A DNA stretch of 64,000 bases from a virus (taxonomy: Duplodnaviria > Caudoviricetes), in IMG/VR virus record IMGVR_UViG_3300012347_000104, positions 8,513-72,512 of that record. One strand, 5' to 3'. The notes under the pieces are model-generated. The model was not told where the DNA came from and did no database searches. It saw nothing but the letters and a program-made list of their open reading frames with translations. Each line of letters starts with the position of its first letter. Position 1 is the first letter of the stretch. Both the position numbers and the translations under genes were made by a program. Positions 3,434 through 38,896 of this stretch are shown here, piece after piece.

Positions 3434-3940
3434 CTATTTTAAAAACTCGTCAATCGACAAGTCGTAATGCAAGCTATTTATACGGTGTACCCCTATTAGA
3501 TACAATACGTAGCTTGACACACTACTACCACGACCTACTCCCCAAACAATATTATTCTTACGCATTGTATCAACTAGATACTTGCAATAACATAGTAACG
3601 GGAATAACTCTTTTTCCTGATACAGTATTAGTTCTTGACCAACTCTCTGTAATTCAAAATCTTCTTTGCACTTCCCCAGTACCCACTGAGCGATATCTAA
3701 CGTTCGATACTCATTTGGCATATACCAATTGTCCTGAGATTCAGCGTCATACTGAGCAGTAGATATATCGGACAGTAAGTTAGCAACTATACTAGGAGCA
3801 TTTTCAAGTTCAAGCACCGATGGTAAAGTAATTGCGGAATCAACTAACGCATTTTTTATAATTACATCAGGGTTTTTTAGGTAGGCATCACACAGGTCAT
3901 TTTCTGTGAGAACTTGCCTACTAAACTTATCGGTGTGCAT
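3434..3940 (-). CDS. dnaE: DNA polymerase III alpha (DnaE)-like fragment A, N-terminal palm half
   Basis: RVGQELILY...LVDTMRKNNIVWGVGRGSSVSSYVLYLIGVHRINSLHYDLSIDEFLK aligns by eye with DnaE RLETELQVI...[35 protein letters not shown]. It stops just before the PDFDVDF motif. Confidence 0.85.
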   Translation of the reverse strand: MHTDKFSRQVLTENDLCDAYLKNPDVIIKNALVDSAITLPSVLELENAPSIVANLLSDISTAQYDAESQDNWYMPNEYRTLDIAQWVLGKCKEDFELQRVGQELILYQEKELFPLLCYCKYLVDTMRKNNIVWGVGRGSSVSSYVLYLIGVHRINSLHYDLSIDEFLK

Positions 3941-3946
3941 AGATTG

Positions 3947-3975
3947 ATTATAACAATCTTACAACAAAAAAGCAA
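3947..3975 (-). promoter_or_regulatory. Sigma70-type promoter for dnaE fragment A
   Basis: TTGCTT-N17-TATAAT, ATG 6 nt after the -10 element. Confidence 0.75.
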
Positions 3976-3978
3976 ATC

Positions 3979-4578
3979 TTATTTGTCCGTTTTCTCGAAG
4001 GTAGCAAAAACTACCTCACTTGCTGTTGTCTTTTTGGGTGTGCTTTCCCAAGCAAGGTCAAATTCTTCCCAATCTAACACTGCTTTTGATAGTTTTACCA
4101 CTTTTTTGTTTTTGGGCTTGATACTATTGATAGTGGGAGCAACGTCATGCCACCAACCTTTAAGCAAAAAGGGTCCACTATTATCTTCAATAGAGTAGAA
4201 GCAAATAACACCATCACTCATGCGGCTAGTAATTGAAATATCAGTTGCAACTAGTCTACCTTCTGCGATTGAATTCATCTTATGCAAAAGCATGATACCT
4301 ATGATTTGGTCATATGGTTGTTCAGGTAGAGTGCATACCTTCAGCCCAATTTGAGAAAACTTCTCAATGGCGTCTAGTTCATCTTCAGGTACAAATATGC
4401 TATTCTGTAAACAGTATTCCAAATAGAACTTGATTCGTTCTAGTGCAATATTTTGTTCCTCAATCGATTCAGTATCAATGTTAAAGGTAACATCAAACTC
4501 ATATTGATTGACAATGAATTCATTTTCAAAATGAACACACGCTAACAAATCGAAACCGCGTTGTACTCTTGCTGACAT
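3979..4578 (-). CDS. Hypothetical protein (possible degenerate T-fold)
   Basis: 199-aa ORF; weak resemblance to QueD secondary-structure pattern without His ligands. Confidence 0.7.
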   Translation of the reverse strand: MSARVQRGFDLLACVHFENEFIVNQYEFDVTFNIDTESIEEQNIALERIKFYLEYCLQNSIFVPEDELDAIEKFSQIGLKVCTLPEQPYDQIIGIMLLHKMNSIAEGRLVATDISITSRMSDGVICFYSIEDNSGPFLLKGWWHDVAPTINSIKPKNKKVVKLSKAVLDWEEFDLAWESTPKKTTASEVVFATFEKTDK

Positions 4579-4580
4579 AA

Positions 4581-4814
4581 TTAACCTTTTGACGAAATGT
4601 TGATTGAGTTTTGTACATTTTGCTTTTTGTACAGTGCATCTAACCGTGCGGCTATCTCAACTTGGTAGCTTTCGATAACCATTCGAATTTGGGTGATTAG
4701 TGGGGTGTTTCCGGTTCTGAATGCGAAATTCAGTTTACCGTTTAAATCGGTAACCGTTTTTTGTAAATCTTCTAAAGACTTACTATCTAGGTCTGATACG
4801 AAGGGATGTTGCAT
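4581..4814 (-). CDS. Hypothetical coiled-coil protein
   Basis: 77-aa ORF in the minus-strand gene run. Confidence 0.7.
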   Translation of the reverse strand: MQHPFVSDLDSKSLEDLQKTVTDLNGKLNFAFRTGNTPLITQIRMVIESYQVEIAARLDALYKKQNVQNSINISSKG

Positions 4815-4846
4815 GAAGATATTTAATACATCTTCATGCTATCAAA

Positions 4847-5668
4847 TTAAAATGTTGATAATGTAGTACGTTTCCAAATAGCAGTCGAGCCATCATATGT
4901 TCCGGTACAGATATAGAAATATGTACCATCTGTGCAAATGTGTCCCAATCTGTCGCCTTGCAAGCCTGTACGAGAAGGCTGACGGACTTCGATAGTACTA
5001 GCAGTTGTGCTACGATTTGTGGGCATAACGTCAATCGTTGTTCCGCAATCTACTGAGGTAACTGTTAGATTAATCTCAGATACTCCATTGGGGATAGTGA
5101 ATCCATTTGTATACTGAAAGGGCTGACTGTCTTCCGGTACGTGAGGGTATCCGTTCGAAACGTAATTCTCTAGAATGCGAATCGACTTGCTTGGACCTGC
5201 TGTGATAACTCCCTGTGAGTCTACCGAAGTAGTTGGGAAAATAACATTAGCTGTAGCTGCCGAAGCATCAATTTTTAAACGTAGCTTAACTTGTGCCTCT
5301 GTTCCTGCAGGCGCCCATTTGCTAAAATCAAACTGCACGTCACCTGTAACGGTTCCGTACTGTACATCACCTTTTGTAGTGTCGATAACAATTTGCCCAG
5401 TTAAGTTGCTTCCGATGTTGAATGTGCTCGCTCTGAACGTTTTAGTAACAGCATTACTGATAATAGTGTTTGCCATATCATTGTTTAATGCTGCGCCGGT
5501 CAATGCTGACTTTACTACAACTTTAGATTGCAAGTCGTTTAACTCAGATTTAGTGGTATCTAGCGCCAACTTAATGTTTGAAAAGTTGTCTCTGAAGCCT
5601 TGAGTACTGTTGTTGACACCAGGTGTTGGGAAAGTGGTGCTGATTGAATTTGTGTTAATATTGCTCAT
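4847..5668 (-). CDS. Putative virion structural protein (fibre/baseplate-associated)
   Basis: N-terminal FPTPGVNNSTQGFRDNF followed by a coiled coil; C-terminal DGTYFYICTG...WKRTTL fibre-type motif; TAAATA upstream. Confidence 0.65.
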   Translation of the reverse strand: MSNINTNSISTTFPTPGVNNSTQGFRDNFSNIKLALDTTKSELNDLQSKVVVKSALTGAALNNDMANTIISNAVTKTFRASTFNIGSNLTGQIVIDTTKGDVQYGTVTGDVQFDFSKWAPAGTEAQVKLRLKIDASAATANVIFPTTSVDSQGVITAGPSKSIRILENYVSNGYPHVPEDSQPFQYTNGFTIPNGVSEINLTVTSVDCGTTIDVMPTNRSTTASTIEVRQPSRTGLQGDRLGHICTDGTYFYICTGTYDGSTAIWKRTTLSTF

Positions 5669-5697
5669 GTGTTTGTTCCGATTACATATTTATATGC

Positions 5698-7848
5698 TTA
5701 TATCTTGGGTAAAATTGTTTCTCTGTTGAATAGAACAACATCATCATATTGTTCCAACGATTCTGGTGCAGGAGAAGCACTAGGTAAATTACCCCAGACT
5801 GGTCTAGTCAGTGTAGTGTTCCAGTTGAACGTAGCACTTCTGTCTACGATGAATCTGTCTATTTCAAAATCAATATCACTAAGTTCGAATGCCCAATAAT
5901 TTTCAATATTAGACCTGACTGTCTCGGACTTTCCCGGTAACGTGTAGCATAGAACCCAAGCCTCAACATATCCCAAAGTGTTACCATCATGTTGCTGACT
6001 AGTCATCCATTTTGGAAGTAAACTTTGGTCATAGTCATATTCTAAGTTTTGTTCGATTTCTTTGCGCATGTTCTCTAAACTCACTGGGTTTAGTAATTTT
6101 ACATAACCCGGTGAGAAACTAGTGTGAGCTCCAGTAGACGATGTGAACTTATCTGTTCTACTATCATACCAATCACCGTAACGTAGACCAATATCTTGCG
6201 GCCATGCAATACTCATAGGAACGCTTTGACCTTCAGCATTAGTTGCCGGATCAATAAGCGGAGCATATACTACTTCATATAAAACATTGTTGTTCTCATC
6301 TCTTGCAATAGCAGTTCTTAGTCTATCAAAGATGAATTTTTGACGATAGTGATTGTTGGGTATTGCGTTGAGGTATGATAGTGTGCTAGTTGCTACCACT
6401 CCATATTGGTGAACGATTCTAACATCAGCAGCCTTACCAAAATAAGGATCATTAGGTCTATACAAATACTCAGCAGGAATCAATGACTCGCTATTCAATA
6501 GTGATTTGATTATCTGTCTTCCTAATATGTTAGGGGCAGCTTTAAAATATAAAGTTTCTACTGGGCTTTCGAATCGTTGAAGAATATTCAACGTGAATGT
6601 TTGCACATTGCTAATCAGTGCATAACCAGACGAGTTTGCAGTTACTTCAAACGTAAAGGTAGAGACGTAATTCTTATCTCTGATAGTCTTTTCAGGTTGG
6701 AAGGGGAATCTACCAACTAACTCACCTGATTGTGTTAACGAGATATTAGGTGGGAGTTTGCCTCCAGTGACTGCATAAGAAAGAGGGGTAGGTGACACCG
6801 CTTCTAATTTGATGTCACATATAGTACCGTTATTATATGTGCCTAGATTCTTAGGGGATTTCCAAACAATTTCTTTCTCGTCATTATTTCTAATGTCAAT
6901 AAAGAATGTTTCAGCATCACTTCTAAAAGAAGGATCTGCTGTTTTGAAAACAACGACAGATATCTCAAAACGTTCTATAGTACCCTCAGTAACTTCAGGT
7001 ACGCCGGAGATCCAACCTGTAGTGGTATCTCCTAGTAAGCCCTTCGGTAAAGAAGAAAAGTTATACTCAATCTGGTCTCTATCAAAGTCATAACCCATTA
7101 CCTTGAAAGAAAAATACTTTCCAGAGTCAATGATAGGTAAAGTATTACTAACTAATGTATAGTACCCTAAGAATGGATCAGACTTGTCTAATGGCAATTG
7201 TAACGGCTTGCTGTTCAATATCGCAGGGCTTCGCTTAACTGCAATTGATGTTAGTTGTTTATTTGTAATCTTAATAGAATACGGTTTTGAATCAGAACCC
7301 AAGTCAGAAGACGCAGTGATACTAAAAGAGAATTCACGTTCAGTAGGAGAACCATCTAGTAACACAGGTGGCTTTGCCCAACCAGATATAGAACCATCAA
7401 CACTCAAAAATAATCCAGGAGGAAGTTTCCCAGCAGAAATTCTAAAAAATACTTTGTTTGTTGTAACTGGATTAATCAACGGTATCTGATAGAATACATA
7501 TTCACTATCTTGAATATCGAATAGTTTGGTATTAGGAGCTGACAACTGTACACCGACATATGCTGAAATAGTAATTGAAAAGGTTCCATCCTTGATGTTA
7601 CCATATTCATCTGTCACACGTACTGTAAATGTGTGTAGCTTTGAGATTCCGGCGTTGGTTAACGTACCTGAAATTCTACCATCGGATGATAACGAGATAT
7701 CACCCTCAGGTAAAGAACCGTTAAGTAAAGAATATGTCAGTGAATTAGCGATGCCGGTTGGTGTGGCTTCCAACTTTATGTTTAATGGAATATTAGAAGG
7801 ATGAAACCCTAGATTCCCCGGCAACGTTTTCCAAGATGGTTGAGACAT
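5698..7848 (-). CDS. Virion protein with about four putative Ig (He_PIG-like) repeats, probable baseplate component
   Basis: Repeats YSLLNGSLPEG..LSSDGRISG, FRISAGKLPPGLFLSVDGSISG, SSLPKGL...TGWISGVP, YAVTGGKLPPNISLTQSGELVG. Confidence 0.75.
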   Translation of the reverse strand: MSQPSWKTLPGNLGFHPSNIPLNIKLEATPTGIANSLTYSLLNGSLPEGDISLSSDGRISGTLTNAGISKLHTFTVRVTDEYGNIKDGTFSITISAYVGVQLSAPNTKLFDIQDSEYVFYQIPLINPVTTNKVFFRISAGKLPPGLFLSVDGSISGWAKPPVLLDGSPTEREFSFSITASSDLGSDSKPYSIKITNKQLTSIAVKRSPAILNSKPLQLPLDKSDPFLGYYTLVSNTLPIIDSGKYFSFKVMGYDFDRDQIEYNFSSLPKGLLGDTTTGWISGVPEVTEGTIERFEISVVVFKTADPSFRSDAETFFIDIRNNDEKEIVWKSPKNLGTYNNGTICDIKLEAVSPTPLSYAVTGGKLPPNISLTQSGELVGRFPFQPEKTIRDKNYVSTFTFEVTANSSGYALISNVQTFTLNILQRFESPVETLYFKAAPNILGRQIIKSLLNSESLIPAEYLYRPNDPYFGKAADVRIVHQYGVVATSTLSYLNAIPNNHYRQKFIFDRLRTAIARDENNNVLYEVVYAPLIDPATNAEGQSVPMSIAWPQDIGLRYGDWYDSRTDKFTSSTGAHTSFSPGYVKLLNPVSLENMRKEIEQNLEYDYDQSLLPKWMTSQQHDGNTLGYVEAWVLCYTLPGKSETVRSNIENYWAFELSDIDFEIDRFIVDRSATFNWNTTLTRPVWGNLPSASPAPESLEQYDDVVLFNRETILPKI

Positions 7849-7850
7849 GA

Positions 7851-8480
7851 TTACCCTTGGTGTTGTAGCAAGTCTAATACTAAGTGGTAGTGATGTTGTC
7901 TATCTTCTAACCCAATTGTTCCGCCGTTGATTCTCTTTGTCAATGTAACAAAGTCATCACTGTCGCAGTATTGATTTAAGTTGTTATTATCCCAGAACCA
8001 ACCAGCTGAACTTACTGCACCCTGAGGTGTTTCTAGATAAGCTACTGTTTCTTCGATACTGATACCTAAGTCTGCGGCAAACTTTGTGTAGTTAGCACGA
8101 CCGGTTAATTGAATAAGCCCTCTGCCACAGAAACGAAAACCATCACCTGATCCTTCGTCACCATTAGCCATACGATTAGCGTAAACACGATTAGCAATTT
8201 TTTCAGGTTTTCTTTCATACTCTTTTGCTATCCCTTCATTAGGAAAATACTTTTTAAATGTAGTCATTAAACCTTTTGCACCGTAACTCAAATTCTCTTT
8301 CACGAAATTGAAGCCACCTGACTCATGTGCAACTTGTGCTAAAAATCCTGCCACTCTGCGAGGATTGTCGTACATGTCATAGTATTCTGCTACTTCATGT
8401 AATGGTTCTGCATATAATGCTAGAACGCTCTCTTTTGTTTTTGGGCATAAAGCCTTCAATAGTTCTAATGTTACTTTCAT
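7851..8480 (-). CDS. Glycoside hydrolase family 19 lysozyme/chitinase (endolysin or tail lysin)
   Basis: FLAQVAHESGGF..ENL, GDGFRFCGRGLIQLTGRANY, SAGWFW, TKRINGG..GLEDR. Confidence 0.93.
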   Translation of the reverse strand: MKVTLELLKALCPKTKESVLALYAEPLHEVAEYYDMYDNPRRVAGFLAQVAHESGGFNFVKENLSYGAKGLMTTFKKYFPNEGIAKEYERKPEKIANRVYANRMANGDEGSGDGFRFCGRGLIQLTGRANYTKFAADLGISIEETVAYLETPQGAVSSAGWFWDNNNLNQYCDSDDFVTLTKRINGGTIGLEDRQHHYHLVLDLLQHQG

Positions 8481-8492
8481 TTTTTGTTTCCT

Positions 8493-11174
8493 TTATGCGT
8501 AAATGCTTGTTAATGAATACCACTGAGTTGTTGAGGTAGAGTATAATACTAACTTACCGTCAACTCCTATTGTGACTGATGCACCTGCTAAGTTTTTGTC
8601 AATGAGTGACCCTGTAGGAGGGAAGACTTTTATTGGACTTGTTGATGCGTTGATAATCACAATGTTTAAACCGGCTACTGTCGCAGGTAATCTAACTGAG
8701 TCTGCTGAACTTGCTGTAGCTGAGGTTACTACGTTAAATTCTTTAGTAAGTACAAACGCAGAACCTATAGAAGTACCTGTTGCAGAGATTCCAGCATCCA
8801 CACTGTGTATGAAGAATCCTGATGCTGATAGATTGCCACCAGATATTGATGTTGCACCAGAGATGCCGCCACTTAGTGTAAGTGATGTTAGTGTGCCAAG
8901 TGAAGTAATAGTTGGTTGTGAAGAAGCAGAGACAGTCCCTGCAGTTATAGCTGTGTCAGCATCAGTTGCACTAGCTACTTTACTTACGTTTGCACCATTG
9001 ATGCTTTCTAAATTCGCACCATTACCTTGAAACAATGTACCTACGACCGTTCCTAATGATGCATTACCACCACTGATATAACCGTTAGAATAAATCGTTG
9101 CTCCACCTGTCTTTAAGTTTCCACCTGTGATATTACCGGTAGCAGAAATGAGACCAGTAGTCCCAATGTTTCCTAAGTTTGCGTTAGATGTTACATTCAG
9201 TGTACCTGCCGTAGATAAGTTACCAGCAGTTGCGGTACCTGTCACTGATAGTAGGCCTGCTGCATTGATGTTAGCCATATTGCTATCACCTGCACGTAGA
9301 ATTCCAGTTATGTTTAGATTACCACCATTGACATTTCCAACTACATTTAATCCTGTTCCCGCACTAATGACCGTACCTGCGACAGACATAGATCCTATTG
9401 CAGAACTATTAAAAGTAACTTCTGTATTAGAACATGTTAGAACGGTGACACCTGATGCTGAAGTGTTGTACCCGGTTGGAGTAACTCCCTGAACAACAAT
9501 AGTTTGCCCAACTGCGAAAGGAGGGAACGTTTGTGTAGGGAACGCAATTGTTGCTATCATACCGTCACCGGATGTAGCAGTAATCGATAAGTTCGCCCCA
9601 ATTGATAATGTGTTAGCCATCTTAGCGCCAGCAGCCATATTCATGATGCCAGCAGCAGTGACGTTGCCTAATGAAGAATTACCTACAACAGTCAATATAC
9701 CTTCAGCCGTAACATTCGAGCGACCTAAAAAGTCACCAGTAATGTCAGCAAGACCAGATGAGTATAGAGATGCACCTGCTAATTGACCGTTTGTTGTGAT
9801 GAAGCTGCCATTAGTTGTGTTAATGTTTCCGGTAATGTTAGCATTACCAGTTGTAGCGATTGTCGCAGCAGATACTAAACCAGAAGTAGTTAGACTTCCT
9901 ACGTTTGCTGCTCCGTCAACTTTAAGAATTCCACTTGCTACAAGGTTCGCACCTTCTACGTTTCCTGATACTGCAACCTTTACACCATTTACGTTTGTAG
10001 TTGTGATATTACCAATACTTGCATCACCGGCTACTTCTAAGTAACCGCTAGTAGATAAGTTACCACCAGTAACTGTACTAGTTGCAGATAATATTCCTAG
10101 AGAGATAACACTATTTGCAGACACTGTTCCTGTATTTGCAAATACATTACCACCAGTAGATAAGTTACCAACTGTTGCTGTCTTCGTAACTGACATTGCA
10201 CCACTAGTGATTACGTTGCCACCTTCAACGTTGCCTTGAATTGTCAATAGGCTTGTTGTTTTGTTATATGCTAGTCCAGGAACAGCAGCAGCTTTACCAC
10301 CATCGTTGAACATAACAGCCATGTTGTTAGAAGGTCCGCCAGGAGCATCAAGTGTTGCGCCCGGTGGTAATACAATATTACCTGTAATAGTTCCAGCAGT
10401 GAACACACCGGATACATTCATAGTTGATGCATTTACTGCATATGAATCTAGGTTACCTACTAGAGAAATGTTACCACTAGACAAATTACCGTCAACTTGT
10501 AATCCTTGAAGAATACCTACGCGGGTAATATTACCTTGGTCAGGTGTTGTTAATGGACCTGCAATTTCAACACCTGTAATTTGATCCGCTTCAACAGTAC
10601 CAACACTCAAATTTCCAGTTACCAAACCAGAAGAAATTTGAAATCCTTCGTCAGATGAAGAAATTGACTGACCACCAATCCTAATTGTGTTACCTGATAA
10701 CCACAAGTCTCGCCATCTGTTAGTCGGGGAACCTAAGTCCAAAATACTGTTACCTTCAGGAACCAAAGCTGATTTCACTACACCGGTGACGTTAAGGTTA
10801 GCTATTTGTATATTTCCCGAGAAGTTACCGTTAACTGTTGAAATGGTATTCGCTAGACCAATAACGAAGGGAGTGGTATCAGAAACTACAGCTACGTTTG
10901 AGAAACTAGTACTTAATTCCGGCTTAACTACTAAACTGTTAGGAGTTGTTTTAATTGTAACGTTTGCAACGTTTGCATATACTACTAAATTTCCAGAAAT
11001 GCGCTCGTCTTCATTACGCAAACCAAAGCCTGGAACTACTTCTAACACACCCTGTTTCAGTGAGTTAGTGTACAAATCTGTGAAGTTATCTTGTATTTTT
11101 TGAAATGCTTCTCTAATCGATTCCGCTGAGGGATCGTTAGGGAAAGAACCAAAGTCAATATACTGCTGAGTCAT
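8493..11174 (-). CDS. Glycine/asparagine-rich tail fibre-like protein
   Basis: N-terminal IDFGSFPND...IREAFQKIQDNF (T4 gp9/gp10-type anchor); many GN(I/V)xGGNLxTxG repeats; C-terminal receptor-type domain. Confidence 0.75.
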   Translation of the reverse strand: MTQQYIDFGSFPNDPSAESIREAFQKIQDNFTDLYTNSLKQGVLEVVPGFGLRNEDERISGNLVVYANVANVTIKTTPNSLVVKPELSTSFSNVAVVSDTTPFVIGLANTISTVNGNFSGNIQIANLNVTGVVKSALVPEGNSILDLGSPTNRWRDLWLSGNTIRIGGQSISSSDEGFQISSGLVTGNLSVGTVEADQITGVEIAGPLTTPDQGNITRVGILQGLQVDGNLSSGNISLVGNLDSYAVNASTMNVSGVFTAGTITGNIVLPPGATLDAPGGPSNNMAVMFNDGGKAAAVPGLAYNKTTSLLTIQGNVEGGNVITSGAMSVTKTATVGNLSTGGNVFANTGTVSANSVISLGILSATSTVTGGNLSTSGYLEVAGDASIGNITTTNVNGVKVAVSGNVEGANLVASGILKVDGAANVGSLTTSGLVSAATIATTGNANITGNINTTNGSFITTNGQLAGASLYSSGLADITGDFLGRSNVTAEGILTVVGNSSLGNVTAAGIMNMAAGAKMANTLSIGANLSITATSGDGMIATIAFPTQTFPPFAVGQTIVVQGVTPTGYNTSASGVTVLTCSNTEVTFNSSAIGSMSVAGTVISAGTGLNVVGNVNGGNLNITGILRAGDSNMANINAAGLLSVTGTATAGNLSTAGTLNVTSNANLGNIGTTGLISATGNITGGNLKTGGATIYSNGYISGGNASLGTVVGTLFQGNGANLESINGANVSKVASATDADTAITAGTVSASSQPTITSLGTLTSLTLSGGISGATSISGGNLSASGFFIHSVDAGISATGTSIGSAFVLTKEFNVVTSATASSADSVRLPATVAGLNIVIINASTSPIKVFPPTGSLIDKNLAGASVTIGVDGKLVLYSTSTTQWYSLTSIYA

Positions 11175-11214
11175 GTTAAATCTACCTTATGTTGTATTTA
11201 TCATAAAGTATGAC

Positions 11215-11246
11215 CAAAAAAATAGCCCACCGAAGTGAGCTATTTA
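11215..11246 (-). terminator. Intrinsic terminator
   Basis: Minus-strand AUAGCUCAC-UUCG-GUGGGCUAU followed by a U-run. Confidence 0.85.
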
Positions 11247-11261
11247 AAATACGGTTTCTTA

Positions 11262-13325: not shown

Positions 13326-13334
13326 ATCGTGTCC

Positions 13335-13547: not shown

Positions 13548-13548
13548 T

Positions 13549-14157: not shown

Positions 14158-14185
14158 CTTTTGTATTCCTATTATATTATTTATC

Positions 14186-14677: not shown

Positions 14678-14704
14678 ACTACTATCCTATAATAGTAGTA
14701 TTTA

Positions 14705-15504: not shown

Positions 15505-15524
15505 ATGTTACCTCGTAGAAGTAT

Positions 15525-16613: not shown

Positions 16614-16619
16614 TAGTTA

Positions 16620-17310: not shown

Positions 17311-17311
17311 A

Positions 17312-27587: not shown

Positions 27588-27595
27588 GGTAAACA

Positions 27596-28951: not shown

Positions 28952-28970
28952 CTATGAGATAAATCATAGT

Positions 28971-29393: not shown

Positions 29394-29405
29394 AGCGGCT
29401 TTTTT
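29378..29405. terminator. Bidirectional intrinsic terminator
   Basis: A-run AAGCCGC-ATAAA-GCGGCTT T-run between convergent genes. Confidence 0.85.
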
Positions 29406-29422
29406 GTTGTGCTTAAAAAATA

Positions 29423-30403: not shown

Positions 30404-30476
30404 TTTGTTTCCTTTAGAATGACGTTCTAGGTCTACGCAGAGGGATTCTGCATAAATTAATTGAACAATGTATTTA

Positions 30477-30827
30477 TCAGACCTGAGTCATTGTGACGTT
30501 ATACACGTTACCTGAAGAAATTTCAGTAAAGAATACACCACCGCTGTTGGCGTGCATCGTGAACGTTGCGCTCACTGTAAATGTGTTTGCTGATACTACG
30601 TTTGCTGAACCTTGAATCTGAGAAAATGCAATAGAACAGTTAGGACTGTTAGTTAATATTTCAGTGTTTGTTGGGTTATTACCTTCTTGAGGAACCCAAG
30701 AAGGATCGTTGCCAATGAATACTCGTTGTTCATCCGAAGCGAATCCAATCTCACCAATATCTAATTGTGGAATCTCATCTGCTGAGCCGGTTCTGTGAAC
30801 GATTTTTGAAATTTGTACGATTGCCAT
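30477..30827 (-). CDS. Short protein with major-tropism-determinant N-terminal-like domain
   Basis: IVHRTG.....PQLDIGEIGFASDEQRVFIGND matches the Mtd_N-type fibre motif. Confidence 0.6.
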   Translation of the reverse strand: MAIVQISKIVHRTGSADEIPQLDIGEIGFASDEQRVFIGNDPSWVPQEGNNPTNTEILTNSPNCSIAFSQIQGSANVVSANTFTVSATFTMHANSGGVFFTEISSGNVYNVTMTQV

Positions 30828-30864
30828 AGTATATCTTCTCTAGTGATATACTATTTATCATCGT

Positions 30865-31551
30865 TTATGCGAACTTGGTGTAGAATTCTTCTAGCTTTTT
30901 ATACCACTCTTGTTGGTACTTATCGAATTCATTGCCCTCGATTATGAACTCTTGGTACATAGCGTTCGGATCACACATGAAAATAACTCCCTTGCGGATC
31001 TTTGTCCCATGAAGTTCATTGTGAGCTGTTGCATATGCCGCAAGTTGAACAAAGTAGTCATCAATCCACTCTCTTTTCTTGGGTTTATTAGTCTGCTTAT
31101 GATCCATGATAGATTCACTGCCATCATGCACACCGACCAAATCAGTTGTTCCAGCATAGACCGCAGGGAAGTATAGAGGGACTTCAGTGCCCCAGAATTC
31201 AGTGCAGTTACATAAACCTTGCCTGATAATTGAGTCAGCCATCTTGTGACTTTGGATACTGTATGGGTTAGAACCTGACGCACCTAATGCTCCTGTTAAT
31301 ACGTAATCTTCCAAGAACTTATGCATTCTTGTGCCACGACTTGCAGCTTCTGTTGAAATCTCTTGCGCCTTAGCGGTACCTACTCTATTACGCCATTGTT
31401 GTAGAACTAGTTTCTTTTCTTCTGATTGAGTAGCAGAAAGAATAGTAGTGACTGACGGTAGTTTGTTACCATCAGGGGTAGCATAGCGTCTACCTTCAGG
31501 GGTATCGACTCTTTTCAAAGCCTCATATTTAAATTTATTGGGAATGTACAT
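30865..31551 (-). CDS. PD-(D/E)XK exonuclease
   Basis: RYATPDG.KLPSVTTILS, RGTRMH..LE, E..L....YAGTTDLV, IMDHK, YFVQLAAY. Confidence 0.88.
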   Translation of the reverse strand: MYIPNKFKYEALKRVDTPEGRRYATPDGNKLPSVTTILSATQSEEKKLVLQQWRNRVGTAKAQEISTEAASRGTRMHKFLEDYVLTGALGASGSNPYSIQSHKMADSIIRQGLCNCTEFWGTEVPLYFPAVYAGTTDLVGVHDGSESIMDHKQTNKPKKREWIDDYFVQLAAYATAHNELHGTKIRKGVIFMCDPNAMYQEFIIEGNEFDKYQQEWYKKLEEFYTKFA

Positions 31552-31557
31552 ATGGCA

Positions 31558-31587
31558 ATTGTACTATAAATTTCTTCATAGTACAAT
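31558..31587. promoter_or_regulatory. Palindromic, potentially bidirectional sigma70-type promoter
   Basis: 10-bp inverted repeat ATTGTACTAT-N10-ATAGTACAAT reads TTGTAC-N17-TACAAT on both strands. Confidence 0.6.
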
Positions 31588-31595
31588 CTGTTTGG

Positions 31596-31916
31596 TTAAG
31601 CTAATTTGTTTGATTGCTTTTTAGCCATTTGCTGACGAATCTGTTCATTCTCGTCGGGTCTAGGTTCTTCCATCTCACCTTGTTGACCCTTAAACACTAC
31701 TTGTTTACTTTCAATATCTTGGATAATGTTTACAAGAGGTTCTTTTTTGATAATATCGTAAATATCGTCATCATCAATAGAGATTTTGTTTGAGCGGAGA
31801 ATTTCAACAAACTGGTCTAGTGGCATAGGTTCGCTACTATTAGATTTTAATTGAGTAGCGACCCCTGTTAACTTGACTCGCAGCGGATCATCGTCAGCGA
31901 ACTCGAATAATCTCAT
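31596..31916 (-). CDS. Hypothetical protein, probable virion component
   Basis: 106 aa, starts MRLFEF. Confidence 0.75.
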   Translation of the reverse strand: MRLFEFADDDPLRVKLTGVATQLKSNSSEPMPLDQFVEILRSNKISIDDDDIYDIIKKEPLVNIIQDIESKQVVFKGQQGEMEEPRPDENEQIRQQMAKKQSNKLA

Positions 31917-31917
31917 A

Positions 31918-32631
31918 TTAACGAGTTGCGCGGCCTACGCTTGATAGTTCTTCTGGCTCTTCTTCGGGCATTTCTGCATCTAAATCTGCTTCGCCGCCCA
32001 TGTCCATACCTGAATCATCGACTGATACATCAGACATTTCATCGCCCATGCCCATGTCATCACCTGCCATGCTCATATCAGCAGCGCCTTGACCAGTAAT
32101 GATACCGACAGCACCTGAGATACCTGTCTTAGCGCCAGTTAGTGCGGCTTGCAATGCTGTCAACGCTTGAGTAACTTGGTCATTGAATTGTTGACCCTCA
32201 TTTGTTCCTACTTCTGAATTGACACCGTCAACGACTGCTGGAAGTTCTTTAACTAGCATGTCAGAAACTTGCTCGACCATCTTTTGTAAACTGTCAGCCA
32301 TTTCTTGTGCAGCCAAGATAACTTGTGATTTCTCAACTTGCTCGTTTTCTACAACGATACGTTGATTGTACATTGGACGAGCCTTCAAATCACCATAGTG
32401 ATGTGTAAGTGCTTGTTCCATGAACAATGCTTTTAAGAAAGCTGGATTCTGTTCGCTACGAACAGCTTTATCTGATGACTTCATCTCAGCGATAAGACCA
32501 CGCACTTTCGTCAACATTTGACGAGTAGCTTGTAGGTCTAGCTTAGATGTATTGACATCAGTGTTGAAATGCTCTTTGAGTGCTTTTTTAGCAACTTGAG
32601 ATTTCTTTAGGTTAAATTCGTTAAGTTTCAT
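31918..32631 (-). CDS. Hypothetical protein, probable head/prohead component
   Basis: 237 aa, acidic D/M-rich tail, TAAATA upstream. Confidence 0.75.
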   Translation of the reverse strand: MKLNEFNLKKSQVAKKALKEHFNTDVNTSKLDLQATRQMLTKVRGLIAEMKSSDKAVRSEQNPAFLKALFMEQALTHHYGDLKARPMYNQRIVVENEQVEKSQVILAAQEMADSLQKMVEQVSDMLVKELPAVVDGVNSEVGTNEGQQFNDQVTQALTALQAALTGAKTGISGAVGIITGQGAADMSMAGDDMGMGDEMSDVSVDDSGMDMGGEADLDAEMPEEEPEELSSVGRATR

Positions 32632-32674
32632 GGTTGTTCCTAGAGTACTAATAATGTATTTATCATTATTAAAT

Positions 32675-33148
32675 TTATTTGACGGCTTCTTTGAATCGCT
32701 TTTCTTGCCAAGTCTTAGAATTCAGAATATAGCGATTAAGTTCCGCTGTAATCATAGTCTTTTTGAGTTTATCTTCCTGTAGTTTAGCAGAATAGATGAG
32801 TTTTTTGTCGATATCTTTAGCTTTTTTGTAGAGTTGCGTATGCACTTCGAGGTTTACTACTGTTCCCTCAAGCATTAAATCCAAGTCAAGTACACGGTTT
32901 GCATCGCCAACTCTCTCACGTTTGTACATAGTAGCCCAAGCTACTGCATTACGTAAACTGTGAAATTCTTCGGTTAAGCTAGTGTGATATTTTTCTACGA
33001 TGAACTTGTTATTTGTAGGCTTGATGAAGAACTCACCAAACAACTCATACCCGCCGTTCGTGGTAATTACTAATGCTTTCTCAAGGGCAGCAAGGTCGTT
33101 GTCAGTAATCAGACGTTTGAACTTTTCAAACATTTTCTTATCACGCAT
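32675..33148 (-). CDS. Hypothetical protein
   Basis: 157-aa ORF, coupled to the upstream gene. Confidence 0.75.
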   Translation of the reverse strand: MRDKKMFEKFKRLITDNDLAALEKALVITTNGGYELFGEFFIKPTNNKFIVEKYHTSLTEEFHSLRNAVAWATMYKRERVGDANRVLDLDLMLEGTVVNLEVHTQLYKKAKDIDKKLIYSAKLQEDKLKKTMITAELNRYILNSKTWQEKRFKEAVK

Positions 33149-33599
33149 GGCTTATTACCTCAAAGTGGATATTTCTCAATTCAGAGCTGGTATCTAAAAA
33201 ATCAGGGAGTTTGTTCCACTCTCTGGATGTTTTAGTCATGGGTACTCCGTGACAGTCTTCGAACAAGTAGCCCAGATTATCTATACCGTCATCAAATACG
33301 TTTTCTTTGGCTATGTCAAAATCAAAGACCCAGCAAGATTGATCCTCTTCGTTGTCGAATAGAAATCCAAACTTCTCTAACATAGCGAAGTTAATTTTCT
33401 TTTGTTCTGGATTTGACGAATTTTCAGGTTGACACCGTATTGAAATTATTTGCATCACTGTATCAAAATTAGTTTGAGCATTACGCTTTATTTCCCAATC
33501 TTTGTACTGCTCTGTTGTAAAATTTACAGATGGTCGTCGGCTAATTGTCTGCGTTCTTGTAACGTCAAAAAGTGTATGGCATCTGATTCTATAACTCAT
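33141..33599 (-). CDS. Hypothetical protein
   Basis: 152-aa ORF; TAAATA 4 nt before ATG. Confidence 0.75.
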   Translation of the reverse strand: MSYRIRCHTLFDVTRTQTISRRPSVNFTTEQYKDWEIKRNAQTNFDTVMQIISIRCQPENSSNPEQKKINFAMLEKFGFLFDNEEDQSCWVFDFDIAKENVFDDGIDNLGYLFEDCHGVPMTKTSREWNKLPDFLDTSSELRNIHFEVISHA

Positions 33600-33616
33600 A
33601 CTCTATTTATAGAAGT

Positions 33617-33642
33617 AAAAAAGCCCTAGAAATTCTAGGGCT
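33617..33642 (-). terminator. Intrinsic terminator
   Basis: AGCCCTAGA-AAT-TCTAGGGCT, U-run on the minus strand. Confidence 0.75.
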
Positions 33643-33647
33643 AGTCT

Positions 33648-34385
33648 TTATTCGTTCGCGCCTCTGACAATGTTTGGATTGTCGTCTTGCGGTACGTTTG
33701 GTTTAGGTCGTTGTCCTGTAGCAACCATCTTAACCATCTCAGCATACTCACCCGGAGCTACTTTATTCAATGCGTTTAATGCTGCTCTTAGAATAGCTTC
33801 CAAATCATCAATTGCACTAGGAATTGCCAACATGCTAATTTGACTAATAATTTTACTTGTTGCCGGACTTAGTTGGTCTGCTGTACCTAACGTATTCTTG
33901 CTGTTAGGATCAGCGTTCGCTGGCATTGGCTTTCCGGCTGCTTGTGGTTGAGCAGTAGCCCCACCGTTACGGTTTTGCATGCCGATTTGATACAATACGT
34001 CACCTATTTTAGACGAATCTTTTGTACGTGCTGCTGAATTTAATGCTTGCTGTTGCTGAGTAGTTAAAGGACCCCAGTTATTCTTCTGGATGTATGACTG
34101 TAGATATGAAGTGGGGTTAAATGCACCGCCACCACCTCTTGCAAGAGTATCAAATTCTGCTTTGAAATCTTTAACGTAGTTATCTTTTCTAACTGCCATT
34201 TTTGCATCTGCACCACCAAAGCCAGTAGCCTTGAACAATCCCTTTTTAAACGCACTAGGTCCGGTGTTTGTTTTAGTTGCTACTTGCTTAGGAGCTGCTT
34301 GAGTTGGCGTTTGGGCGGCACCTGCGTTAGGATTTCTTGCATTCTTCCAAACCGCAGCTTCTGTGATTACGTCTTTAATTTTCAT
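33648..34385 (-). CDS. Hypothetical low-complexity protein, probable internal head protein
   Basis: Probable start MKIKDVITE at 34385 (track start 34481); ends NPNIVRGANE. Confidence 0.7.
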   Translation of the reverse strand: MKIKDVITEAAVWKNARNPNAGAAQTPTQAAPKQVATKTNTGPSAFKKGLFKATGFGGADAKMAVRKDNYVKDFKAEFDTLARGGGGAFNPTSYLQSYIQKNNWGPLTTQQQQALNSAARTKDSSKIGDVLYQIGMQNRNGGATAQPQAAGKPMPANADPNSKNTLGTADQLSPATSKIISQISMLAIPSAIDDLEAILRAALNALNKVAPGEYAEMVKMVATGQRPKPNVPQDDNPNIVRGANE

Positions 34386-34620
34386 CGTTTTTCCTGATAC
34401 TCTTGGAAAATCTAGATTGGTCTCGTGACTTGATTGCCCCGAGTAATTTTCGCTCAAGAATAGCTGCCACCTCAGGATCATAGTTCTGATTAATCATTTC
34501 TAATAGATTAATCGCACTAGTGATAATATTGTGGGCTCGGCTTTCGATGATGTGTTTAGTATCACGTTTCTGACCGATCGACTCTAACTCCTCTAAGAGG
34601 CTGCGTGTATTCTTTTGCAT
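34375..34620 (-). CDS. Hypothetical protein
   Basis: 81-aa ORF with TAAATA upstream. Confidence 0.75.
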   Translation of the reverse strand: MQKNTRSLLEELESIGQKRDTKHIIESRAHNIITSAINLLEMINQNYDPEVAAILERKLLGAIKSRDQSRFSKSIRKNDEN

Positions 34621-34645
34621 AAAATAGATATCCTATCAGTATTTA

Positions 34646-36106
34646 TCATCTTTTCAGATTGTTGAGCATTGCTTTTAACTTACTGCCCTGGACATCTGCC
34701 ACTACTTTTTTCTCTAGAGGCTCTAGAATTTCCCCAGTATCGGGGTTAATAATATCAGTCGTGCTATTCAACGTAGACTGAGGTTTCAACTGACTCATAA
34801 TATCATTAGGACTCGGAGCCGGACGATACTTAGCTTGCTGTTCTGCATAACCATCAGGATCTTCATCAGTGATACGCATTGTGTCAATATTGTAGTCTAA
34901 GTCAATCTTTTGACCAACACCAGTAGAACTACGTGACTTCATACACTGCATTTGATACTTCCCACGCTCACGCATACTACGACTTGTGAAGATACCGAAC
35001 ACGTTATCCGCTGTGTTAATCTTTGAAATACCACCTGCGATATGACTATGGTCGAATTCAACTTCTTCAACGGCTGAACGATTCAACTGTGACGCTGTAA
35101 CTAACAATACACCTAGTTCTTTAGCTAAGTTACGCAATTCTTCTGAAACATACTTGTCTTTAATGAACTGGTCGTTAGGGTTAACTTTAACAGATACAGG
35201 CATAACCAAATCTAAGTAGTCAACCATCACAAAGTCAACTTTGATACCTGTTTGAATTTGAACTTCTTTCAAGTATGAACGAATGTCGTTAACGTTTGAT
35301 TGAGCAGGTAATGCTTTCACCCGATATTGACCTGACTTCTTGGCAAGCATCTTGACCTTCAAGTGAGCATCATCAATGCTTCTACGAATGTCTTTTGTAC
35401 CCATGCTAGTTGCCATCGCATCAGTACGCAACGATGTAAGTTCTTCTGAAAGTTCAAGCGTGATATAAACACCACTCATACCTGTACTCAACCAGTTCAA
35501 CGCTAAGTTCATCATAACAAGAGACTTACCTGAACCTGAGCCACCTGCAAAGATGTTCAATTCACCACGAGACATACCACCGTAAAGAATCTTATCCATT
35601 TGGGGCCAGCCTGTCGAGACCTGTCCACCTGCATTAAAGTACTTGTTGATACGTGCTTTAGGGTCAAAGAAGTAATCTGTACCCATGTCTTTCTGTAGAC
35701 TAATTTGCACAGCATCTTTGATTAGTTTTTCAACAGGATCAAAGTCGCCCTTCTCAAGCATATCAGCTGCCTTAAGAATAGCACGTTCAAGTTCTTGCCG
35801 CTTAGTAAAAGCCTCAAAGGCATCTAAGAACCACTCATTGTGACCTTCATTAAGTTCAGGAATAGATTCAATATCAATTCCTGTCATTGCTTTAATCTGA
35901 GTTGTATCAGGAAGTACCTTATACTTGTCAGTATGTTCTTTGAACAGTTCAGCCGCAGGTCTTAATGACTTGTCAAAATTCTCCGAATTCATAATGTTCA
36001 TCACACGAGTGTATAAACTCGCATCTGTTAACATCATGCGCAAAAATAATTTCTGTACGTCTGGTGTGTAGTCTAGTTGTTTTTTAGAATCCGTTTTGTT
36101 TGCCAA
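34646..36106 (-). CDS. gp41: Replicative DnaB-like helicase (T4 gp41 family)
   Basis: STGW...DK.L.GG..RGEL.IFAGGSGSGKS, YITLEL, VMVDYLDL, TASQLNR.A. Confidence 0.93.
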   Translation of the reverse strand: MANKTDSKKQLDYTPDVQKLFLRMMLTDASLYTRVMNIMNSENFDKSLRPAAELFKEHTDKYKVLPDTTQIKAMTGIDIESIPELNEGHNEWFLDAFEAFTKRQELERAILKAADMLEKGDFDPVEKLIKDAVQISLQKDMGTDYFFDPKARINKYFNAGGQVSTGWPQMDKILYGGMSRGELNIFAGGSGSGKSLVMMNLALNWLSTGMSGVYITLELSEELTSLRTDAMATSMGTKDIRRSIDDAHLKVKMLAKKSGQYRVKALPAQSNVNDIRSYLKEVQIQTGIKVDFVMVDYLDLVMPVSVKVNPNDQFIKDKYVSEELRNLAKELGVLLVTASQLNRSAVEEVEFDHSHIAGGISKINTADNVFGIFTSRSMRERGKYQMQCMKSRSSTGVGQKIDLDYNIDTMRITDEDPDGYAEQQAKYRPAPSPNDIMSQLKPQSTLNSTTDIINPDTGEILEPLEKKVVADVQGSKLKAMLNNLKR

Positions 36107-37070
36107 TCTTTTTCCTCTGCATTTCTAATTTTATTTTACTCATTGTAGCATTTTGTAGTATTGAAAGTACAGTAGCAAGTTTGCCGTACTTTACAACTGC
36201 ATCGTTTACGTCTTTGATGCTAGGTTCCCAGTTAGGTAAACTAACACTATACCCTAATTCTAATGCTCTATCAATCATCTTTAATCCCGTCTTATCGAAA
36301 TCGGGTACTACGATGATTCTTCTGTTTAGTTGTGCAAGCAACACCGCCTGTTCAGGGCTAATGTCATCATGCATAACTGCCACACCATCTATGCTAAGTG
36401 CGTCAAAGATTCCTTCGGTTACAATACATACCTGCCAATCTGGACTTTGTATATCAATGTTGAATACGTAGCCAGCTTGTTGGTCGTTAATATATTTTGG
36501 TATTTTTTTATCGAGGTATCTACTTGTGTTGCCGACAATCATATTGTTATAAGTGTACGGAACAATGACACGATTCTTATTTCTGCCGCCCATTGAATCA
36601 TCATGGGGTGTAACTAAGAATGGATATGACTCTATATCTATCTTGCGTCCTTGCAGATAATCTACGAATACTTTGTGTTCTGGGTTATTTTTATCTAAGA
36701 GTTCACCGTCTGGTAATTTCTTCTCAGCAAATGCAATACGCTCTCTGCGCTTTGGCTCGATGTAGTCGAGCAGGTCTTTGTGTTGTAGACTCTCAAGACT
36801 CCAACGTTGTACTTGTTCTTTGTCTACCCCACACCATTGTAGAAAGTCTCTAGTTTTGGGTGTTATTGACTTGCCTAATTGAAATCCACAACTGAATCTA
36901 CAATTGAAGCAGTGCATAATCCAATTAGTCTGTCCGTCAAACTTTATGCCGCCGCGACCTCTACGATCCGATTTGTGACCGCGATGACCGCAACAAACCG
37001 CATTGAAGCTAGTCCAACCGCTACTTGTGTTTTTCTTTTTACCGGGAATGATTGAAAGGATATCGAACAT
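36084..37070 (-). CDS. DNA primase (zinc-binding plus TOPRIM; gp61-like)
   Basis: N-terminal CC..H / HCFNC zinc motif; TEGIFDAL and PDFD..G...KDVND TOPRIM motifs; abuts the helicase. Confidence 0.85.
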   Translation of the reverse strand: MFDILSIIPGKKKNTSSGWTSFNAVCCGHRGHKSDRRGRGGIKFDGQTNWIMHCFNCRFSCGFQLGKSITPKTRDFLQWCGVDKEQVQRWSLESLQHKDLLDYIEPKRRERIAFAEKKLPDGELLDKNNPEHKVFVDYLQGRKIDIESYPFLVTPHDDSMGGRNKNRVIVPYTYNNMIVGNTSRYLDKKIPKYINDQQAGYVFNIDIQSPDWQVCIVTEGIFDALSIDGVAVMHDDISPEQAVLLAQLNRRIIVVPDFDKTGLKMIDRALELGYSVSLPNWEPSIKDVNDAVVKYGKLATVLSILQNATMSKIKLEMQRKKIGKQNGF

Positions 37071-37078
37071 GCTTTGCT

Positions 37079-37107
37079 ATTATAACAAAGTATGTATACG
37101 AAAGCAA
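37079..37107 (-). promoter_or_regulatory. Sigma70-type promoter for primase
   Basis: TTGCTT-N17-TATAAT. Confidence 0.75.
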
Positions 37108-37119
37108 TAGAGTTGGTAA

Positions 37120-37866
37120 TTATCTTACGACTAATTTATCCACAGTGCCCTGTGAACTAACGAATTCGACACGAACATATGGATGAAAACCTTCGATAGT
37201 GTAAACATCACCCTGTGTGCTTTCAATGTAAGAAGTTGAGCCACCTATGTTATACCAATCACCGTTAGGAACAGTGGAACCTTGGACCTGTGCAGTACCA
37301 CTGTAATCTGTCAAAAATGATTGGATAGTAAGAACCGGGTTGTATTCTGTATTGATAATATCGCTGTAGAACGTTACAGTATTATTATTTGGGGCAGTAT
37401 GTGATGGTACACCCATTTCCATCGATGGCACGTGAGCTGGTAGAATACTATTAGTAATTTCAATCGTACCTCTTGCGCCTGCATCTCCTGCAACAAATAC
37501 AGGTAAGTCAAATGAGTCTACTGGAATCTCTATAGAATAGACTGCTTTTTGGGCTTGCATGATATCAAGTTCAGATGATTGGACACGCAATTCCATCAAA
37601 CCGGTAAGTGGTAAAACAGGATGTAATGCTGATTGAAGCAATGTTACTGTTCCGGCGCTACTGATGATTCTACAAGTGATTTCCTTACCTGTTACGTCAA
37701 TTGGTTTTTGTTCTTGATTTAAGAACTGGAACTGTATTCTATTGTCAACTCCTTTGTGAAGTTTTAGATTCTTAGCGTACACGGTTTGGTATCTCCTTGG
37801 TGATGAGCCAGTAATCAACACAACGATTTGTCTTGGGATGTAAAAATAAACTGATGTTGAGTACAC
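37120..37866 (-). CDS. Putative virion structural protein (BppU-like N-terminal domain)
   Basis: KGVDNRIQFQFLNQEQKPIDVTG...G...L pattern; late-type motif upstream. Confidence 0.55.
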   Translation of the reverse strand: MYSTSVYFYIPRQIVVLITGSSPRRYQTVYAKNLKLHKGVDNRIQFQFLNQEQKPIDVTGKEITCRIISSAGTVTLLQSALHPVLPLTGLMELRVQSSELDIMQAQKAVYSIEIPVDSFDLPVFVAGDAGARGTIEITNSILPAHVPSMEMGVPSHTAPNNNTVTFYSDIINTEYNPVLTIQSFLTDYSGTAQVQGSTVPNGDWYNIGGSTSYIESTQGDVYTIEGFHPYVRVEFVSSQGTVDKLVVR

Positions 37867-37948
37867 TATATGGCTCCTTATACTCTATTTATGACAAATA
37901 AAATAATGGGTTTTGCCCGAAGATAAATATTCCTAGACGACAAAAATA

Positions 37949-38329
37949 ATGATTCACAACGAATTCTTCCAGAAACTAACCGAAAATCACCCGTTCATCA
38001 CGGTATGTTCTTACGCAGGACAGGACTATGTGGGGATTGTCCAAAACAGGGACGATATCGTTACCACTATATACGATTACGGCTCTATCATTGAGCATAA
38101 TATGCGTGAAAGATTTTTAGAACTAGGGGACATTTGGTGGTGGGAATCCAACAGATTAGTCCCCATTAATATGTTCTTAAAGGATGACTGGTCGATGTTC
38201 AAGCCATATCTAAGAACATTCAACAACAAGAGCCTAACAGTTATTCACGGACCTATATGTAGTATGCTTGAACTAAGCAAACGCAAGAGCAAAAGAAAAT
38301 CAATTACTCTCGTCAAGAGAATGTCCTAA
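37949..38329 (+). CDS. Hypothetical protein
   Basis: 126-aa plus-strand ORF with GATAAATA upstream; its 3' end overlaps dnaE fragment B by 30 nt. Confidence 0.8.
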   Translation: MIHNEFFQKLTENHPFITVCSYAGQDYVGIVQNRDDIVTTIYDYGSIIEHNMRERFLELGDIWWWESNRLVPINMFLKDDWSMFKPYLRTFNNKSLTVIHGPICSMLELSKRKSKRKSITLVKRMS

Positions 38330-38896
38330 TCCCTCAGCAAGTAGATTCATATGCACTACGACTAGATTTGCGTAGGCAATAGCATGACTTTTCTTAAAAC
38401 TGTATCCGTCATCATACTTCTCCCACACCGACTTAGCAACATCTTTCCAAGATAATCCAATCAAGTACTTCTTTGCAGGACGAATCGCTGCAAGAAACAT
38501 CGCAAGTCTGGGAATACTATCAATAGGTTCAGGCATCTTTTGCATACTGTTGTAGTGATTGCTCAAGTGAATCAACTTCTCAACAAAAGACCTATCGTTA
38601 AGTTTAGACCAATCAGGTTCTCTCATTAACTCAATTAAATGCTGTTCATCACGTACATGTGTGTAAACGTGAACATTCAACAAGTCTAACTTAAAATAGC
38701 CACGTGCTTCTGCGTCAGTGTAGTCGATATTAGCCATATTGTTTAGTGCATCATATGGCACATCAGTGATGTGTACACCTGTTGCATGTTTACGTATAGG
38801 CGTGACATTGCGCATCGCAGCAGGAATGTGCTTGATGTGTTCTAAGATAGCATCACGACTACCAAAGTCAATGTCAATATCTGATTGAAATTTCAT
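38300..38896 (-). CDS. dnaE: DNA polymerase III alpha (DnaE)-like fragment B, catalytic palm plus truncated fingers
   Basis: SDIDIDF (PDFDVDF), RKHATGVHI (HAAGVVI), GYFKLDLL (KFDFL), LAAIRP, YSFKKSHAIAYA (YGFNKSHSAAYA). Confidence 0.88.
   Translation of the reverse strand: MKFQSDIDIDFGSRDAILEHIKHIPAAMRNVTPIRKHATGVHITDVPYDALNNMANIDYTDAEARGYFKLDLLNVHVYTHVRDEQHLIELMREPDWSKLNDRSFVEKLIHLSNHYNSMQKMPEPIDSIPRLAMFLAAIRPAKKYLIGLSWKDVAKSVWEKYDDGYSFKKSHAIAYANLVVVHMNLLAEGLGHSLDESN

Follow-up and report, generated by a model that had tools for sequence, protein, structure and literature searches.

The window analysed here is a 64,000-nucleotide stretch of phage DNA (Duplodnaviria; Caudoviricetes), positions 8,513 to 72,512 of the 72.5-kb IMG/VR virus record IMGVR_UViG_3300012347_000104, which has a CheckV completeness of 21%. 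Two of its genes, fragment A (3434..3940, minus strand, 168 amino acids (aa)) and fragment B (38300..38896, minus strand, 198 aa), are the two halves of the split minimal DNA polymerase III (Pol III) alpha subunit of group 2.2 jumbo phages (RaK2, PA5oct and Atu_ph07-like). We consider it probable that the two chains make up one minimal C-family DNA polymerase core that is accessory to a family B replicase; that A and B form a heterodimer, that it polymerizes DNA and that its role is accessory is what we infer from the evidence given below.

The family itself has been described from sequence before. In the part of their paper that treats this system (section 3.4.1, Fig. 3b), Iyer, Anantharaman, Krishnan, Burroughs and Aravind (2021, Viruses 13:63; PMC7824862) describe for group 2.2 jumbo phages a minimal Pol III alpha that is split, with its halves on distant genes and beside a family B polymerase. 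They suggest there that it synthesizes one strand or serves in repair, and put it forward as a model for the ancestral Pol III or C-family enzyme. Earlier still, fragment A was annotated in phages CBB (2017) and Atu_ph07 (2018) as a Pol III alpha that is truncated. Since the family was published in 2021, the window adds an uncultured member and is not a discovery. A sequence-only reading of the window had proposed one mini C-family core split at a single palm junction and knew of no characterization; the structural part of this reading holds, whereas its implied novelty does not. A literature search with most subscription journals outside its coverage found no biochemical characterization of the split mini polymerase. 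Our additions are a structure-based residue mapping, a universal split point and a quantification of co-occurrence and selection. To these come a fused protein, constant neighbours and a conserved promoter block, which do not appear in the passages of Iyer et al. concerned with the system.

Homology, fold and split point of the two fragments

Fragments A and B lie 34.4 kb apart on the same strand with B upstream of A, and both reading frames are intact where the sequence-only reading had placed them, with the end of A and the start of B that it gave. Fragment A matches the Pfam family PF07733 (DNA_pol3_alpha) with 37.7 bits, above the curated cut-off of 23.9, over positions 24-94 of the 260 in the profile, and it matches phrog_11127 at 8e-39. 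Fragment B has no match in Pfam. It matches phrog_11778 at 7e-55 and, weakly, the fingers region of the full-length phage DnaE in phrog_405. The closest cultured members share at most 52% (A) or 47% (B) identity with the window copy.

Searching the PDB with the single sequences using phmmer gave only an E value of 0.34 for A and no match for B. Since single-sequence searches were too weak, profiles were required. The B profile was built from 80 diverse homologues with 30-80% identity (alignment A1) and matched nine distinct PDB sequences, all of them Pol III alpha, with a best E value of 1.4e-5 for the E. coli enzyme (5fku). In this alignment KLDLL of B corresponds to KFDFL of E. coli DnaE (D555), IRP to FRP (residues ~639-640) and FKKSHAIAYA to FNKSHSAAYA (residues 756-765). 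With the A profile, residues 98-167 aligned to residues 385-454 of Taq DnaE and 323-392 of E. coli DnaE. Such a profile search had been put forward as a check by the sequence-only reading, and both profiles match only C-family polymerases in the PDB.

AlphaFold2 modelled B with a predicted local distance difference test (pLDDT) score of 94.6 and a predicted template modelling score of 0.88, and A with a pLDDT of 86.6. For both models the top ranks in Foldseek were occupied by C-family polymerases only. Residue ranges of the models on the solved chains were taken from VIA-align. On E. coli DnaE, A 61-168 aligned to residues 274-393 (Z 10.1) and B 1-198 to 397-790 (Z 8.0); on M. tuberculosis DnaE1, A 67-168 aligned to 304-413 (Z 11.7) and B 1-198 to 416-817 (Z 9.3). 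The corresponding ranges were 293-455 for A 67-168 (Z 10.0) and 458-847 for B 1-198 (Z 9.5) on Taq DnaE, and 821-965 for A 62-168 (Z 7.8) and 968-1305 for B 1-198 (Z 9.8) on Geobacillus PolC. Over the C-family structures Z ranged from about 7.5 to 11.7 for A and from 8.0 to 9.8 for B; the best unrelated chain for B had a Z of 3.0, and none reached Z 2 for A. In all four independent polymerase structures the A and B ranges abut within 2-3 residues without overlap. The earlier proposal that the two pieces are contiguous and non-overlapping relative to DnaE is thereby borne out on solved structures.

Residues 61-168 of A correspond to the N-terminal half of the Pol-beta-like palm and include the GxGRGSS triphosphate-binding loop (GS loop). 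Residue 61 of A is equivalent to residue 274 of the E. coli enzyme, which we take to be the start of the palm after the PHP domain. Residues 1-60 form an N-terminal module that varies between lineages and had no match among the PDB chains aligned. Fragment B comprises the C-terminal half of the palm and reduced fingers, so that residues 397-790 of E. coli DnaE are compressed into 198 aa. In the model of A the stretch around the GS loop and the residues preceding it are without regular secondary structure, and confidence is lowest in the block 131-140 (pLDDT 68). The model of B alone contains a four-stranded sheet.

All A homologues terminate at EF[LI][KRE], and B homologues begin 1-10 residues ahead of the DxDxD motif; in the window copies A ends directly with EFLK and B begins 5 residues ahead of DIDID. 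Within the Pol-beta-like nucleotidyltransferase fold the cut thus separates the GS-loop helix from the DxD strand. The same junction is found in every lineage examined, a check that the sequence-only reading had suggested, and this identity of the split point points to a single, old and stable event. When the fused protein described below was aligned jointly with A and B homologues in MAFFT, the A rows were misplaced, whether or not full-length DnaEs served as bridges.

The residues expected of a polymerase active site are strictly conserved. Among 47 A sequences the invariant positions are G134, G136, R137, G138, S139 and S140, which constitute the triphosphate-binding GS loop. Among 80 B sequences D6, D8, K69, D71, R139 and P140 are invariant, and H37, G40, K168 and H171 are kept in at least 90%. 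The three catalytic aspartates that had been assigned to B (D6, D8 and D71) are among the invariant residues. The pair therefore carries a GS loop (in A) and three catalytic carboxylates (in B) in folds that align to the DnaE palm. The arginine of the FERF motif is absent, as noted earlier from sequence; its place is taken by Glu165, which is present in at least 90% of the A homologues.

Comparison of motif spacing with three full-length DnaEs showed which parts of the enzyme are gone. The distance from GRGS to ExF is unchanged at 29 residues. From DxD to HxxG there are 31 residues in the mini enzyme and 92-111 in full-length DnaE, corresponding to loss of the thumb, and from RP to KSH there are 29 and 111-119 residues, so that 80-90 residues of a finger insert are gone. 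This insert holds the QEQ and RRAMGKK motifs in the full-length DnaEs compared, which come from phages and bacteria. Since B stops 27 residues past KSH, it has no helix-hairpin-helix (HhH), clamp-binding or OB part. A PHP domain was found in none of five records (the contig and four complete relatives), using a search that was positive in all 14 reference genomes that served as control. Spacing, the C-terminal end of B and the PHP search thus agree with the earlier statement that the PHP, thumb, clamp-binding and OB parts are missing. The domain set of a full-length DnaE or PolC (PHP, thumb, complete fingers, clamp-binding, HhH and OB) is not present; the mini polymerase totals 366 aa in two chains, of which ~310 residues are homologous to the C-family core.

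Natural fusion, co-occurrence and selection

A metagenomic protein of 375 aa (P0286), encoded on a 2.4-kb ENA contig (L008), joins an A homologue to a B homologue. It came from the best 150 of 360 matches. Residues 1-180 are the A homologue (38% identity, ending ...KEFIK), followed by a 10-residue linker and then by the B homologue in residues 190-370 (E 1.8e-30). The PF07733 profile runs across the A-B junction of this protein with 59.6 bits, and the motifs GVGRGSS, DFDID, KIDLL, IRPG and YKKTH are retained. A partial convergent open reading frame (ORF) that follows the P0286 gene is homologous to the neighbour of B in the split phages (E 2e-4), which locates the fusion at the B locus. As a Rosetta-stone case, P0286 provides our strongest argument for A and B making one enzyme, although it is a single instance.

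Further A-B fusions were sought in several ways. A search for longer A homologues found no second one, only A joined to other genes. In IMG/VR, a degenerate DNA pattern spanning the junction retrieved only full-length phage DnaEs and one chance match. With P0286 as query there was nothing in viral contigs, and only full-length DnaEs were found in metagenomes. Two other composite proteins were noted. In P0242 (666 aa, ENA contig) an A-like N-terminal part (PF07733, residues 101-180) continues directly into the barrel domain of a ribonucleotide reductase (PF02867, residues 168-617); possible explanations are a gene fusion, loss of a stop codon and an artefact of assembly. In P0241 (360 aa, one metagenome contig) a 199-aa upstream ORF is fused in frame to A.

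Both halves are very common. In the metagenome collection each forms ~8000 or more clusters at 90% identity, with tight sizes of 168 aa for A and ~193-198 aa for B. Among cultured phages B occurs in 96 records and A, with the RaK2 copy as query, in 93, with matching genus counts. With the window copy of A as query only 18 cultured records were found, due to its divergent N-terminal part. Of 20 long IMG/VR contigs bearing A, 13 also contain B, including all five with at least 90% completeness. The two halves therefore do not occur independently of each other, which was one of the checks proposed with the sequence-only reading.

The genes are adjacent in no relative, and their separation is always at least 33 kb. 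In cultured phages it is 33 kb (RaK2), 43 kb (Paride) and 182 kb (Atu_ph07). In 12 of the 13 IMG/VR contigs both genes are on the same strand, 37-119 kb apart, with B on the 5' side of A in 11 contigs. The sole contig with A and B on opposite strands, 128 kb apart, belongs to record G013 (L021/L091); here B is at the extreme start of the contig, and a rearrangement or an assembly issue is possible.

The ratio of nonsynonymous to synonymous substitution rates (dN/dS) against the closest relatives was 0.044 for B and 0.177 for A; the primase gave 0.041 in the comparison used for B. With values of 0.04-0.18 there is no sign of relaxed selection, and the earlier argument against decay is upheld.

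Gene neighbourhoods of the fragments and the promoter-like block

Fragment B lies in a replication module with the order B, a convergent ORF, a virion protein (phrog_1084), a DnaG-type primase (36084-37070, minus strand) and a DnaB-type helicase (34646-36106, minus strand). This order is shared with Atu_ph07, Paride and RaK2. The convergent ORF (37949..38329, plus strand, 126 aa, phrog_11637) overlaps the 3' end of B by 30 nucleotides and is its most constant neighbour, adjoining B in all 13 IMG/VR loci as well as in Atu_ph07, Paride and RaK2. It has a basic C-terminal tail and no match in Pfam; its dN/dS is 0.053, and in close relatives it is more conserved than B.

On the other side of B is a gene for an Rv2179c-like DEDDh 3'-5' exonuclease (38893..39453, minus strand, PF16473 at 8e-34), the stop codon of which overlaps the start codon of B in the sequence ATGA. 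The exonuclease gene is thereby translationally coupled to B, a trait of this sub-clade, in which alone its product is a candidate proofreading partner. It adjoins B only in the closest relatives (L091, L092 and L109). In two complete relatives it is 1.3 kb (G001) and 47 kb (G002) away from B, and no homologue is detectable in Atu_ph07, Paride or RaK2. Due to this restriction to the closest relatives we rejected the exonuclease as a partner of the whole family. In the cultured phages a separate DnaQ-type epsilon homologue is reported to lie elsewhere in the genome (CBB and Atu_ph07 genome papers of 2017 and 2018).

The A module consists of two small ORFs, an optional 199-aa ORF, A, a 108-aa ORF, a GroES-like gene and a clamp loader gene. 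The 108-aa ORF (3098..3424, minus strand, phrog_14844), which has an acidic tail, is directly downstream of A and occurs in 82 of 84 A loci; its conserved N-terminal segment is of the type VDMxxLxxxNExxxAVGNMNVNARGD. The Cpn10/GroES-like protein (2727-3101, minus strand) is found in 81 of the 84 loci, and the gp44-like AAA+ clamp loader (1457-2383, minus strand) also belongs to the conserved module downstream of A. An ORF of 116 aa is in the same minus-strand module (1457..3101) as these two genes. The 199-aa ORF upstream of A (3979-4578, minus strand) has no family match and was rejected as a universal partner since it is present in only 46 of the 84 loci. Further upstream, two minus-strand ORFs of 716 aa (5698-7848) and 893 aa (8493-11174) with essentially no PHROG match flank an endolysin-like gene (7851-8480). 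Both gene modules are syntenic with those of RaK2, PA5oct-like and Atu_ph07 phages.

The intergenic region upstream of A (3941..3978, minus strand) contains the promoter-like block TTGCTT-17 nucleotides-TATAAT-6 nucleotides-ATG. A consensus scanner reported no promoter above shuffle expectation at this position. Among 18 loci compared, comprising the window, L110 and 16 related ones, 12 show the pattern TTGnnn-17-TATnnT with its end 5-6 nucleotides ahead of the start codon and with a varying spacer, which supports a real promoter. The claim that A has its own sigma70 promoter is thus strengthened by conservation across loci. The block is probably a sigma70-type promoter, and its position suggests a leaderless or near-leaderless mRNA. 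A Shine-Dalgarno sequence is not visible upstream of A. In more distant relatives a ATTGATAT-like motif occurs instead, 4-7 nucleotides ahead of the A start codon.

The clamp loader, the primase and the DnaB helicase are all within the window, in agreement with the T4-type replisome with a separate primase that had been recognized before. Because the source record is only 21% complete, the rest of the genome was examined in relatives. A family B polymerase of ~890-930 aa is encoded in all four complete relatives; it is not on this 21%-complete fragment, and presumably it is part of this phage's own genome as well. No further DnaE domains were found in this check of the wider genome, which the sequence-only reading had suggested.

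The proposed enzyme and alternative readings

In the enzyme that we propose, A would contribute the palm's first strand and helix together with the GRGSS loop, by which the triphosphate of the incoming deoxynucleoside triphosphate (dNTP) is bound. Fragment B would supply the next strands with the DxD pair of metal-binding aspartates and the third aspartate (KxD), as well as pared-down fingers with the RP and KSH motifs. Since the cut is inside the catalytic fold, a single active site requires non-covalent assembly of both chains; the A strand would then complete the B sheet and place the GRGSS loop over the three aspartates. The product would most likely be a short-patch polymerase of low processivity that acts as an accessory to the family B replicase; its tasks could include primer extension, gap filling or repair. 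The functions offered by the sequence-only reading (gap filling, template-independent or protein-primed synthesis, DNA modification) are speculative.

This agrees with the system described by Iyer et al. (2021), where the passages on it likewise describe two separate proteins encoded far apart, an N-terminal half that binds NTP and a C-terminal half that binds Mg and the template, without other DnaE domains and with a T4-like family B replisome alongside (the family B polymerase being known here from relatives). The window pair shows no essential difference; it comes from an uncultured phage, and in its sub-clade the DEDDh exonuclease gene is translationally coupled to B. With bacterial DnaE and PolC the pair shares the Pol-beta-like palm, the GS loop, the three aspartates and the RP and KSH motifs, in the same order and fold. 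The bacterial enzymes consist of ~930-1220 aa in one chain and have the PHP domain, thumb, finger insert of ~85 aa, HhH, clamp-binding motif, OB domain and FERF arginine that the 366-aa pair lacks.

Polymerases divided over two genes are known in other settings. Cyanobacteria encode DnaE-n and DnaE-c by two distant genes, and the halves carry intein pieces by which they are spliced into full-length DnaE. In contrast, the window pair has no intein at the junction, a different split site and only a minimal core. A functional precedent for A and B from another jumbo-phage lineage is PhiKZ (a chimallivirus), for which the relevant passages of a 2026 bioRxiv preprint (PMC13648687) report that the split family B polymerase DNAP-N/DNAP-C was shown experimentally to form a stable 1:1 complex. 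Here too a jumbo-phage polymerase from two genes forms one enzyme; as described there, it has the unrelated family B fold, is the main replicase and has been characterized biochemically and structurally.

Several observations weigh against an assembled, templated polymerase. Only a single fused form (P0286) was found, on one 2.4-kb contig. Fragment B folds confidently alone and hence may not strictly need A. The thumb, ~85 finger residues with the QEQ and RRAMGKK motifs, the clamp-binding part, HhH and OB are all lost, and the FERF arginine is a conserved glutamate. With these DNA- and dNTP-holding elements lost or replaced, templated DNA synthesis is not assured. The same losses, of the thumb, the basic finger insert (RRAMGKK-type) and the processivity modules, make it conceivable that the pair assembles as a different nucleotidyltransferase, responsible for template-independent tailing, for RNA-primer or protein-primed initiation, or for a nucleotide signal. 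Replication is already covered by the family B replicase, and enzymes with the Pol-beta fold are diverse in function. We nevertheless regard such a role as unlikely. The RP and F-K-K-S-H-A-x-A-Y fingers motifs are invariant or nearly so, and retention of these DnaE motifs is hard to explain without a DnaE-like substrate geometry. Moreover, both genes are in replication modules with a primase, a helicase and a clamp loader.

A similarly tentative extension of the polymerase reading is that the constant neighbours, i.e. the 126-aa and 108-aa ORFs and, in the sub-clade, the exonuclease, are further subunits that make up for the loss of the thumb, of clamp binding and of proofreading. The result could be a multi-subunit accessory polymerase which, for example, extends primase products before hand-off to the family B replicase. 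If so, the rare fusion would be either ancestral or a product of secondary re-fusion, a question relevant to the ancestral enzyme that Iyer et al. (2021) suggest.

It is improbable that A and B act independently, with B as a self-sufficient enzyme or DNA-binding factor and A in NTP binding or regulation. In favour of this reading, the genes always lie apart (by 33-182 kb in cultured phages and 37-128 kb in IMG/VR), each has local partners of its own, a promoter-like element precedes A, and B is modelled confidently alone with all three aspartates. Yet the halves co-occur almost without exception, and the GRGSS loop, which completes the same active site in C-family polymerases, is invariant in A. 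In the model of A the loop region is without regular secondary structure and has the lowest pLDDT, as expected for a piece that needs a partner, and the natural A-B fusion P0286 joins the two in one chain.

Finally, we rejected as very improbable the readings of A and B as decaying remnants of DnaE, for which the word 'truncated' in the CBB genome paper might speak, or as halves rejoined by a split intein as in cyanobacteria: dN/dS indicates purifying selection, there are thousands of size-constant clusters with catalytic residues invariant in the diverse subsets aligned, and no intein-N or intein-C sequence is present. At the junction A ends 3-4 residues beyond its final palm motif and only 5 residues precede DxDxD in B, which leaves no room for intein halves, and extra junction sequence was not seen in any A or B homologue aligned.

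As a split minimal C-family polymerase the pair is among the smallest known versions of this family, cut in the middle of the catalytic fold with ~310 homologous residues, and among environmental giant phages it is very abundant. Should it prove active, it would define what C-family catalysis minimally requires and would show what job a second polymerase has in a T4-like replisome. The fusion, the split point, the residue mapping, the neighbours and the promoter block provide testable leads for work at the bench.

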